This document shows positions 9,001-12,000 of a stretch of DNA of 18,683 nucleotides, in pieces (within the stretch, counting starts at the first letter, position 1; each line of letters opens with the position of its first letter). The stretch comes from a virus: the UHGV virus genome UHGV-0367998. One strand, 5' to 3'. Position numbers: made by a program.

Positions 9001-12000
9001 CGCGATCAAGAATGGCGGTAATGCACAGGCTGCGGTGGATGAATATTATGCTGCGACTGGTTCACAACCGCATCAACAGAAAATTCAGCAACAGAAAACC
9101 CAACAGCTTTTACAGAAGTGGCAGACGTGGGCGGCGGGCGATCCGGTTAAACAGGAGTTTGTAAAAGCGACTGCCGCCAATATGCCTGCTTTGCTGGAAC
9201 CTGGTCGTGAAAAGGAGGTGGAAATTTATTACCAGAATCACCTCAGGGATAAAAAGGCAGAGCATGAAAAGGCGCTGGATTATAGCGCTTCCGCATCTGC
9301 CGAGAAGATCAAAGGCTGGATGAAGTAAAAATACGCGGCAGTAACGCACTCACCGTTAATCTCGTTCACTTACGCCCGACCATCGTGTCGGGCTTTTTTT
9401 ACTGGAGTCTGTATGGCTTTTTCAGATGAGCAGCGCCCTGAAGCGCAATTGGGTAACCAGAACCGCAGCAGTCTGAACATTAAGCAGCCGGGAGAAAATT
9501 ACTGGCAGGATTTTTTCAACAACCCGGAGAACGCTGTTGATCACAGCACGTCGTTCAGCCTGGGCGATGTATTGCCAACAATGGGTAAAGGTTTCGCCCA
9601 GTCCGTCCGGGGAACAGGGGAAATGGCCCGTGGACTCGGTGATGCACTTGTAAATAATCCTGTAAAAACGCTTGCCGGGTTGTCGTCTTTCATGACGGAT
9701 GTTTACATGCCGCCTTCCTCCACGCAAAAGGAACTGGGCGCACCACCTTCTGTTGGAGATGCGATTAAAAACATTCCCGATGGAACAGGGAAAAACGCGG
9801 TGACTGATACTGTCGGTAAAGGTCTGAAGGCCACAGGCAAGGCAGTCAGTGATGGTGCCAAAGCCTCGGATGAATGGCTGACAGATCAGATGTCGCCGGG
9901 TGCTGTTCGTGCGCTGAACACGCCAATGAGTGAAGGCTATGATGATTCTGCGGTCTTGCTGACGAAGGGTGTAAACCTGATTGGTGCGCTTGTACCTGAT
10001 CTGGTTGCTGGCGGTGTGGTTAGAAAGGTGGGACAGGTCGCACTGAAAAGAACGCTGACCGCCGGGCTGGAGAAAAAATACATCGCGGCAGGAGTGCAGC
10101 CGGAAAGAGCCACGGCACTGGCAGCAGAAGCTGTCGATAAAAAAATGACGGATTTCTTCCATGCGGGCCTGATCACCCATTCCACAGCCAGTGCACAGGG
10201 GCAGAGTGCAATGTCGGCAGCAGATGCTGTTCTTAATGCGGATTACGCTGAGCTGGCGCAGTCACCGAAATTTCAGCAGACGTTTTTGTCAATTGATGCA
10301 GATCCACAGCACGCACAGCTTACTGATCGCCAGAAAATGGACCTGGCAAAAGAGCGTGTTGCCGATGAGGTGCGCGCGCAGCTGGCAACCGATCCTGAAT
10401 TGCTGGCTGTGAATGCCATGGCGGCAAAACTGGGCGATGCTCAGTTGTTTAATCTGGCGATGCGGGGCACGGCGAAGACCGTTAAAAGCGGCATTGTCAG
10501 AAATGCCACGGAACAGGGGACGATTAATGCGGCGCAGGGTGGCTATTCACGCTATCAGGAAAACACGGCATTGCGTGAGACCGCCGGAATGGATGTGTCA
10601 CCGGGGGAGGGCGTGGCTGACGCAACGATCGAAGGTGCAGCCCTTGGTGCTGCGATGGGCGCACCGTTCGGTGCGGTTGCCGGATATCGTGGAAAACGTC
10701 AGGCCGCAGAAGAAACCGCCATGCGTGAGGCTGAAGTCGTACAGCAGGGTGAAGCAGCCCCGCAACCCGAACCGGCTGATCCGGTGGCACAGCATCGCGA
10801 ATCCATGCAGGGCATGAATCGCGAGCAACTTCTGGAACAGTATGCTGATGCGGATATGGCACCTGAGGGAGACACGTCTGCCGTTCATCGCCGGGAAGCC
10901 GCCAGCCAGCTGTTAAATGAACTGGATGAACAGGCGAAGCGACAGGCGGTGATGGATGAGCTGAAGGCGAAGCCGCGCCCTGAACTGCTTGAGGAATACC
11001 GAAAACTCAGCCTGAAGGAAGGGCGTACTGATACTGAAGAGCAGCAGTTACAGGCTATCCGTGATGTGCTTCGCCCTCAGCAGGAGGCCAGACCGGAGGC
11101 ACAGCCACAGCCGGAAAATGCGGATGATGGCGACGGGAGTATTTACCCGACGGTGCGGTTCCGCGATCCGGATGAAGTTCGTATTGAAATTAACGGGAGT
11201 GGTGCGTCCAGACCAGCAGAACGCATTGAAAAGGTGCGTCCGGACAACCGTTATTTCACGGATGAAAAAAGTGCTCTGGGGAGCGACGTTTTCCGCAATG
11301 CCAGCGCCACCGGCCTGAAACCGTCCGTAGTGAAGAAAGGCGAGAATCAGTATGCCGTTGAAATGGATAATCCTGCGTTCTCTGAAGATGTGGCAACGGA
11401 GACCATTAACACTCTGGCTGACGGAGAGCGTATTACTGATGCTGATCCGATGGAACAGCCCGCGTTCATGCGTGACCCGCGATTCCGTGGTTTTACGGGG
11501 GATGATACAGAAGTGCAGGCCCGTCTTGCCCGTGGCAACGCGCCGACGGCGGAAGAACTGGTGCGTTCCCAGATGGCTGAAGGTGATGCCGGTCCGACAG
11601 CACAGGAGTTAACTGAGCGTCCACGCCTTCCCGCTCCCGGCGATATTCATCCCGGACAGGGATATCCGTTACCGGGAGAAGTAGCGCGTACGCCGGATGA
11701 AAATCAGGCCGGACGTGGTGGTCGTTTTACCACAACCGGTGAGGTGAAGGGCCAGAGTTTCCAGAAAGGACGTGCGCAGGCACCGGAAAATGCCGCTGGT
11801 CGCCAGGGGGAAATACTGGAGGGCGAAACAGTTCGTCGTGGTCTGCCGTCACCGGATGAGCAGAACGCCACAGCGCTGGTACGTGAAGGTCTACCGGCTC
11901 CGGACATTACACACAATGTCCGTATGCCTCAGCCTGATCAGCTTCCCCGAACTGTTCGTAACTCATTGCCTGAGCTCGCACAGCAGGCAGAAGTACGTCG

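Follow-up and report, generated by a model that had tools for sequence, protein, structure and literature searches.

A conserved intrinsic terminator directly before a giant virion-protein gene is probably a conditional gate in the late operon of a phi24B-like Escherichia coli prophage

How is a gene transcribed when a strong terminator stands directly before its start codon? The question is raised by UHGV virus genome UHGV-0367998, in which the stretch analysed here (the window; 18,683 nt, one strand, read 5' to 3') carries a hairpin and T run at 9374-9400 immediately upstream of a gene for a protein of 2792 amino acids (aa), called the giant gene below. A first-pass annotation of the window had proposed that this gene must be expressed by read-through or antitermination from upstream, at a level well below that of the small proteins encoded before it. 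The analysis reported here supports the first part of that proposal but not the second. The 9374 site is probably a conditional gate, or insulator, within a late operon that is read through by RNA polymerase (RNAP) loaded with the antiterminator Q, and not a strong dimmer of giant-gene expression. The features around the junction are as follows.

8066..9328, plus strand: gene of a 420-aa virion protein, the last gene before the terminator (PHROG 601, E 1e-195; a RefSeq coding sequence (CDS) in a near-identical prophage)
9329..9373, plus strand: variable spacer from the stop codon to the hairpin, unalignable between window-type and Sakai/phi24B-type phages
9374..9393, plus strand: terminator hairpin with a 7-bp stem (6 G-C, 1 A-U) and a 6-nt loop, -12.4 kcal/mol, which pairs in every variant
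9394..9400, plus strand: T7 run forming the U-tract, its first base directly after the stem; T7 to T9 in relatives
9404..9407, plus strand: Shine-Dalgarno site GGAG, 5 nt before the ATG; the block GGAGTCTGTATGGC does not vary among the relatives
9413..17791, plus strand: giant gene, 2792 aa, encoding a polyvalent virion (ejection) protein with LPD5, LPD1, MuF_C and LPD38 domains

By direct reading, the 5' arm GCCCGAC (9374-9380), the loop CATCGT (9381-9386) and the 3' arm GTCGGGC (9387-9393) are followed by the T7 run and then by ACT, the GGAG motif, TCTGT and the ATG at 9413, which leaves exactly 12 nt (9401-9412) between the last T and the start codon of the giant gene. The hairpin lies on the coding strand outside any open reading frame (ORF), 45 nt beyond the stop codon TAA (9326-9328) and short of the giant ATG, and the window type has no in-frame start upstream of it. 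A consensus terminator scan of the window called the site on the plus strand with 7 pairs, 6 of them G-C, and a 6-nt loop; the hairpin is present in both the minimum free energy and the centroid folds of 9329-9430. Under a stringent definition (a perfect stem of at least 7 bp with at least 5 G-C pairs, a loop of 3-8 nt, and a T run of at least 6 within 1 nt), the real window contains two sites, compared with none in 500 dinucleotide-preserving shuffles. These two are the 9374 hairpin on the plus strand and a site at 979..961 on the minus strand. The 9374 signal is unidirectional because the minus strand has no T run after the hairpin. The site has every sequence-level feature of a Rho-independent (intrinsic) terminator, and termination there is predicted for unmodified RNAP. 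The first-pass description of a GCCCGAC/GTCGGGC hairpin with a T7 run ending at 9400, a ribosome-binding site (RBS) and an ORF opening at 9413, 12 bp after the terminator, is borne out by direct reading, by the scan and by the shuffles. A REP-like (repetitive extragenic palindromic) or mobile palindrome is ruled out, since the sequence is single-copy both in the window and per prophage: a search tolerating 3 mismatches still finds the 27-mer only once in the window, and the intergenic segment that carries the terminator is single-copy per prophage and was found in 20 of 5426 complete E. coli genomes.

Conservation was assessed across 34 IMG/VR loci retrieved through the N-terminus of the giant protein, 47 retrieved through the pattern of T run and RBS, and the loci of phi24B, P27, phi367 and Sakai Sp5. 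A hairpin followed by at least T7 is present at the junction in every locus compared, with the following stems.

Window type: 5' arm GCCCGAC, 3' arm GTCGGGC
Sakai/phi24B type: 5' arm GCCCGGC, 3' arm GCCGGGT
Third type: 5' arm ACCCGGT, 3' arm GCCGGGT
Fourth variant (P27 record): one G missing from the 3' arm, which gives a 5-bp stem

With the P27 gap set aside, all scorable cells in the alignment (100%) are paired, and changes on both sides are seen at two of the seven pairs, of which pair 1 is G-C, G-U or A-U and pair 6 is A-U or G-C; this is a small sample of nine distinct sequences, three to four stem variants and few independent changes, all of which point in one direction. Pairing falls to 25-44% when the 3' partners are slid by 1-3 columns. 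The covariation indicates that the hairpin is selectively maintained. Between window-type and Sakai/phi24B-type phages, the 45 nt before the hairpin and the 3' end of the upstream gene are unalignable. Similarity between the lineages restarts exactly at the hairpin and runs on through the T run, the invariant block GGAGTCTGTATGGC and the giant ORF.

A promoter scan of the window found no sigma-70-like site between 9394 and 9413. Twelve nucleotides cannot hold a promoter, so the giant gene must be transcribed by read-through. Between the preceding terminator (6646-6665) and 9374, the plus strand has a single sigma-70-like match, a weak one (9/12) at 9022-9049 on the upstream side of the hairpin, and a promoter of the gene's own in the gap was rejected on these grounds. 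Within 6666-8066 the scan found no such site on the plus strand, and only 22 nt separate the preceding terminator from the ATG at 6688. Promoter-like matches are rarer in the window than expected by chance (10 versus 17.5 +/- 4.6). The earlier view that the terminator leaves no room for a promoter downstream is upheld by the 12-nt gap and the empty scan of 9394-9413. Searches for other RNA elements were equally bare: no Rfam family reached its gathering threshold anywhere in the window, including small RNA (sRNA), leader and hok/sok families, and a permissive Rfam search of 9150-9600 returned chance-level matches only, with E values of at least 0.59. A regulated attenuator or riboswitch was rejected, as 9329-9430 has no competing structure, folds no better than its shuffles (z = -1.05) and has no Rfam match. 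An Hfq-bound sRNA, or one derived from the 3' untranslated region, is without support; in the Hfq-CRAC paper on enterohaemorrhagic E. coli (EHEC), Sp5 sRNAs are found only near stx2, and HnrS lies in other prophages.

Sequence similarity identifies the window as the late (structural) arm of a short-tailed, 933W/phi24B-like E. coli prophage (Sepvirinae, Traversvirus). Eight complete E. coli genomes carry prophages with 100% identity to region 8800-10000, and Shiga toxin (Stx) phages such as VT2-Sakai and P27 are 88-91% identical to it over the alignable parts. The whole window shares 96.5% identity with the prophage of the uropathogenic E. coli (UPEC) strain UPEC-245U and 87-94% with Sakai Sp5. 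The UPEC-245U prophage carries a gene of the Q21 antiterminator family (PF06530, E 3e-53; family so named in PMC9388147) at NZ_CP049845.1 3399698-3400078, about 30.4 kb upstream of the giant gene and on the same strand. Every annotated CDS between Q and the giant gene lies on the plus strand in this prophage, and over the same interval of Sakai Sp5 co-orientation is broken by an IS629 insertion and by bor. Hairpins resembling terminators come after the Q region (such as L042 18933-18954) in a scan that did not locate the promoter pR' or the Q-binding element, both of which have been mapped experimentally in Sakai Sp5 (PMC7547250). In Stx phages, transcription from pR' is constitutive, is halted at tR' in lysogens and is extended by Q into the late genes (PMC7547250), and Q-loaded RNAP stops terminator hairpins from forming in a processive manner (PMC9388147).

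Terminators recur throughout this operon. The UPEC-245U late region contains 51 terminator-like sites on both strands versus 19.3 +/- 4.6 expected, and a scan for compact intergenic terminators (an RNAfold hairpin of -8 kcal/mol or better with a T-rich tail) found about 17 on the plus strand versus 4 on the minus strand. Sakai Sp5 shares six of the plus-strand terminators, which follow the portal gene, the major capsid gene (MCP), ECs1224, lom, ECs1237 and ECs1241. At four of these six the stem ends no more than 22 nt before the next start, namely at MCP-ECs1224, ECs1224-ECs1225, ECs1237-ECs1238 and ECs1241-giant gene. Essential genes ECs1226, 1228, 1232, 1233, 1241 and 1242 sit downstream of one or more such terminators (essentiality from PMC5155283). 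The arrangement of a terminator followed by a start codon is not special to the giant gene, because it precedes other essential structural genes. The conserved plus-strand terminators behind portal, MCP and the small gene that comes next (L042 30233-33096; L090 16390-19251) each stand 20-116 nt before the next essential structural gene. The operon has the same-strand Q gene upstream and the unbroken run of co-oriented genes that are expected of a Q-antiterminated lambdoid late operon.

Evidence on expression comes from relatives. The giant ORF matches PHROG 616 over its full length and has the same start (9413) in RefSeq, and the protein is the homologue of Sp5 ORF80/ECs1242 and of phi24B gp47, a virion protein that its authors propose to be an ejection protein (bioRxiv 10.64898/2026.04.10.717836). 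The 420-aa protein encoded at 8066..9328 is likewise the homologue of Sp5 ORF79/ECs1241 and phi24B gp48. Both Sp5 ORF80/ECs1242 and the upstream ORF79/ECs1241 are essential for infectious particles (PMC5155283). In the quantitative PCR of Riley et al. on phi24B, CM7, which corresponds to the giant CDS (49148-57571), changed significantly on induction (PMC3342100). By contrast with this induction-linked signal, CM18 (lom), a few kb upstream on the same strand, was strong in lysogens and unaffected by induction, to the surprise of the authors (PMC3342100). Such a pattern can arise, with lom constitutive and the giant gene induction-linked, because conserved same-strand terminators at 5789, 6646 and 9374 lie between them. 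The two sister sites are:

5789..5815, plus strand: sister terminator AACCCGCTGTGATAGCGGGTT followed by TTTTGTT, directly after lom (5032-5766); conserved in Sakai
6646..6672, plus strand: sister terminator GACCCTGCCCCGGCAGGGTT followed by TTTTGTT, 22 nt before the start codon at 6688; kept in Sakai Sp5 and the UPEC prophage

Gene order in this part of the window runs from the tail genes through lom (5032-5766), a hok-like gene, a 133-aa ORF and four genes (6688-9328) to the terminator, the giant gene and a gene with a Panacea domain. The first-pass view that the giant gene is reached by read-through or antitermination is supported by the absence of a promoter, the Q21-family gene upstream, the co-orientation of the late genes and the induction-linked mRNA of phi24B (PMC3342100).

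Protein abundance can be judged from the phi24B proteome table, which gives estimated copy numbers; the ranges reflect different reference proteins.

gp47 (giant protein), 2811 aa: 18.6-22.8 copies per virion
gp48, 421 aa: 29.7-36.6 copies per virion
gp51, 260 aa: 22-27 copies per virion
gp50, 148-161 aa: 36-48 copies per virion

The giant protein is within about two-fold of its detected upstream neighbours per phi24B virion, and by residues (copies multiplied by length) it is behind only the capsid and decoration proteins among those quantified. A large attenuation of the giant gene is unlikely, and a modest drop of two-fold or less is compatible with these values. The expectation that the giant protein would be made well below the level of the small upstream proteins is not supported, in view of the virion copy numbers, the blocking of hairpins by Q (PMC9388147), the recurrence of the layout before essential genes and the essentiality of the giant gene in Sp5 (PMC5155283).

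More distant relatives extend the comparison. In Vibrio phages D60 and K250, small genes, a gene of 467 aa and a giant gene encoding about 3000 aa form a syntenic block, with identities to the E. coli phage of 28.6% at the giant N-terminus, 41.7% in the C-terminal part and 28% in the upstream protein (E 2e-12). In both, a terminator with the hairpin GCCCGC-CTAGT-GCGGGT and the T-rich tail TTTCTTTT stands right after the 467-aa gene (L039 5542-5566; L041 5461-5485), and no other strong plus-strand terminator occurs in the 12.7 kb examined. The roughly 85 nt from there to the giant gene hold a promoter-like site (TTCACC-17-TATGAT), and the Vibrio giant gene may on this layout be a separate transcription unit. 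No hairpin with a T-tract was found before the giant genes of Ralstonia phage Gerry and Burkholderia phage DC1 (27% identity, C-terminal part), and the idea that a terminator precedes all giant polyvalent-protein genes was rejected on this account. Positional conservation of the junction terminator across distant relatives is partial. One could imagine that the 9374 stop is an old, position-specific checkpoint and more than one operon terminator among many, with the giant gene ancestrally its own unit as leaky production of this multi-enzyme protein is harmful, and that the E. coli phages lost the promoter and became wholly Q-dependent; we regard this history as unlikely.

In the reading that we favour, the 9374 site would be a genuine intrinsic terminator, kept by selection, inside a late operon of about 39 kb in a 933W/phi24B-like lambdoid podovirus. 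Ordinary RNAP would stop at the site, which would intercept transcripts from Q-independent upstream promoters (lom, hok), from spurious intragenic starts and from leakage past tR', and the giant virion-protein gene would consequently be silent in the lysogen. After induction, Q would load onto RNAP at pR' and form a nozzle in the exit channel that blocks terminator hairpins. The loaded RNAP would then pass the 9374 site along with roughly a dozen signals like it, and the giant gene would be transcribed on the same late mRNA as its neighbours and translated from its own strong GGAG site. Several points weigh against this account. The terminators at 5789 and 6646 already stand between the giant gene and both lom and hok, so a third may not be required for insulation, which is the putative selected role of the 9374 site. 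Within 6666-9373 the promoter scan found no convincing Q-independent promoter for the site to stop. The Q gene is not inside the window, and the link to it runs through a prophage that is 96.5% identical overall and identical over 8800-10000. Virion stoichiometry, finally, differs from synthesis level.

The nearest competitor is an attenuator, in which even Q-modified RNAP terminates substantially at 9374 and giant mRNA and protein stay well below those of the upstream genes. The signal looks strong, with its perfect 7-bp stem and perfect U7 tract, antitermination need not be complete, and the giant protein amounts to about 0.5-0.6 of gp48 and gp50 in virions; yet its copy number is within about two-fold of its neighbours and equal to that of gp51, the layout recurs before other essential structural genes with products required in differing amounts, losses adding up over a dozen sites of this kind would deprive the distal operon of transcription, and the nozzle formed by Q prevents hairpins from forming, all of which makes substantial attenuation unlikely. 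Somewhat less probable still is a role at the RNA level. Hairpins at 3' ends stabilise mRNA and U-rich leaders enhance translation, and the hairpin could shield the processed 3' end of the upstream mRNA from exonucleases, or the hairpin and U-tract could keep the RBS open or act as a U-rich S1 enhancer. The hairpin, U-tract and GGAG block are indeed kept as one unit at fixed spacing, with the U run directly 5' of the Shine-Dalgarno site; but a hairpin followed immediately by at least 7 U is the specific signature of an intrinsic terminator, a stabiliser would have no need of the U-tract, and the sister sites in the operon carry the same signature. Such a role could coexist with termination.

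That the hairpin has no function and is a remnant of a module boundary, the end of a former moron or operon left at a recombination joint, is very improbable. Homology between window-type and Sakai-type phages does break exactly at the 5' edge of the hairpin, and the terminator followed by a promoter-like site in the Vibrio phages suggests an older separate transcription unit, but in every lineage all 7 pairs are preserved through compensatory changes, no T run is shorter than 7, and the upstream gene is essential and not a moron. We give least credence to a giant gene with its own promoter and no need of read-through. The weak match at 9022-9049 inside the upstream gene and the promoter-like site of the Vibrio relatives could be cited for it; against it, transcripts from that sole candidate, upstream of the terminator, would be stopped there, just 12 nt lie between U-tract and ATG, promoter-like matches in the window are fewer than chance (10 versus 17.5), and giant-gene mRNA follows induction as the late genes do. 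A conditional gate passed by Q-loaded RNAP remains the probable explanation.

Comparison among relatives also bears on the start codon of the giant gene. In the GenBank record of phi24B (HM208303; L038 5149-5191, homologous to window 9372-9415), the giant CDS starts at an in-frame ATG 13 codons further upstream. This ATG has no Shine-Dalgarno site, a CDS beginning there would cross the terminator hairpin, and the window-type lineage lacks it. The phi24B start is very probably an annotation error, placed 13 codons too early, and the comparison settles where the gene truly begins. The 420-aa ORF and the giant ORF share a reading frame, with one stop and 28 sense codons between them in the window and two stops in Sakai. 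This sharing is probably a coincidence, and stop-codon read-through is without evidence. Riley et al. (2012) reported that expression-library clones CM5, CM6 and CM17 map to small minus-strand ORFs within the phi24B giant gene (52191-52514, 53297-53866), of which CM5 was reported as induction-linked. A 376-bp contig labelled 'Xanthomonas pisi' (NZ_JPLE01000269.1; L037) encodes a stretch of 31 aa with 94% identity to the giant protein of the E. coli phage, and is probably a contamination of that assembly.

Other features of the window lie further from the junction. Palindromes at 6147-6170 and 6298-6321 flank the hok-like ORF (about 5999-6137, about 46 aa; Hok/Gef in RefSeq), and the second of them falls within the annotated 133-aa ORF (6195-6596). 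Downstream of the giant gene and on the same strand, an ORF at 17942-18466 carries a Panacea (SocA-like antitoxin) domain (PF13274, E 2.5e-19). No strong terminator lies between the giant gene and this ORF, no obvious toxin partner was found in the window, and Sakai Sp5 has other genes in its place. The minus-strand terminator at 961-979 (GGGGAGCATGTTGCTCCCC followed by T7, -14 kcal/mol) lies in an intergenic gap between plus-strand late genes, adjoins a small hydrophobic ORF (841-955) and has a conserved counterpart in Sakai Sp5 (L090 23601..23581). Its presence points to a short transcript, convergent or antisense, with a start near 1000-1060.

The late operons of Stx-type podoviruses appear to be punctuated by conserved terminators, and every distal structural gene, including that of the essential 2800-aa ejection protein, would depend on processive antitermination by Q. 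The 9374 site is in this respect an ordinary feature of a well-understood system and carries little weight beyond annotation. It offers a precise coordinate at which existing EHEC Sakai data can be checked: according to PMC7547250, Term-seq, dRNA-seq and RNA-seq sets were deposited at GEO (dRNA-seq GSE143631), and the Sakai hairpin homologous to the 9374 one lies on the plus strand at NC_002695.2 1295986-1296005, with its U-tract at 1296006-1296012. A literature search for RNA-seq of induced Stx phages brought up that paper alone. No paper describing the site was found in the literature searched, and the principle itself is textbook.

The closest known counterparts are the lambdoid late operons whose terminators are read through under Q (lambda, 21, 82 and the pR'-tR' region of 933W). 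The present operon shares with them a single long, co-oriented series of late genes downstream of a Q gene (here of the Q21 family, PF06530), canonical hairpin and U-tract terminators inside the operon, distal late genes without promoters of their own, and, in the close relative phi24B, induction-dependent expression of the giant gene. It differs in position: the studied terminator tR' adjoins pR', whereas the 9374 site lies about 30 kb downstream and abuts a start codon. Moron cassettes, as Juhala et al. (2000) are cited in PMC4104026, similarly have a same-strand terminator in a late operon that keeps Q-independent transcription local. This pattern fits the neighbouring lom gene, constitutive in lysogens, with its terminator at 5789-5809, but the genes closed by the 9374 site (6688-9328) are core virion genes for which no promoter was found. 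A moron terminator in the strict sense is ruled out, as ECs1241 is essential, gp48, gp50 and gp51 are virion proteins, and the genes have no promoter of their own. A further likeness is seen in Tn916 and the pLS20 conjugation operon, where, as far as the sources consulted describe them, terminators prevent leaky or premature expression and a processive antiterminator encoded by the element licenses the operon, although the antitermination factors and the hosts are different.

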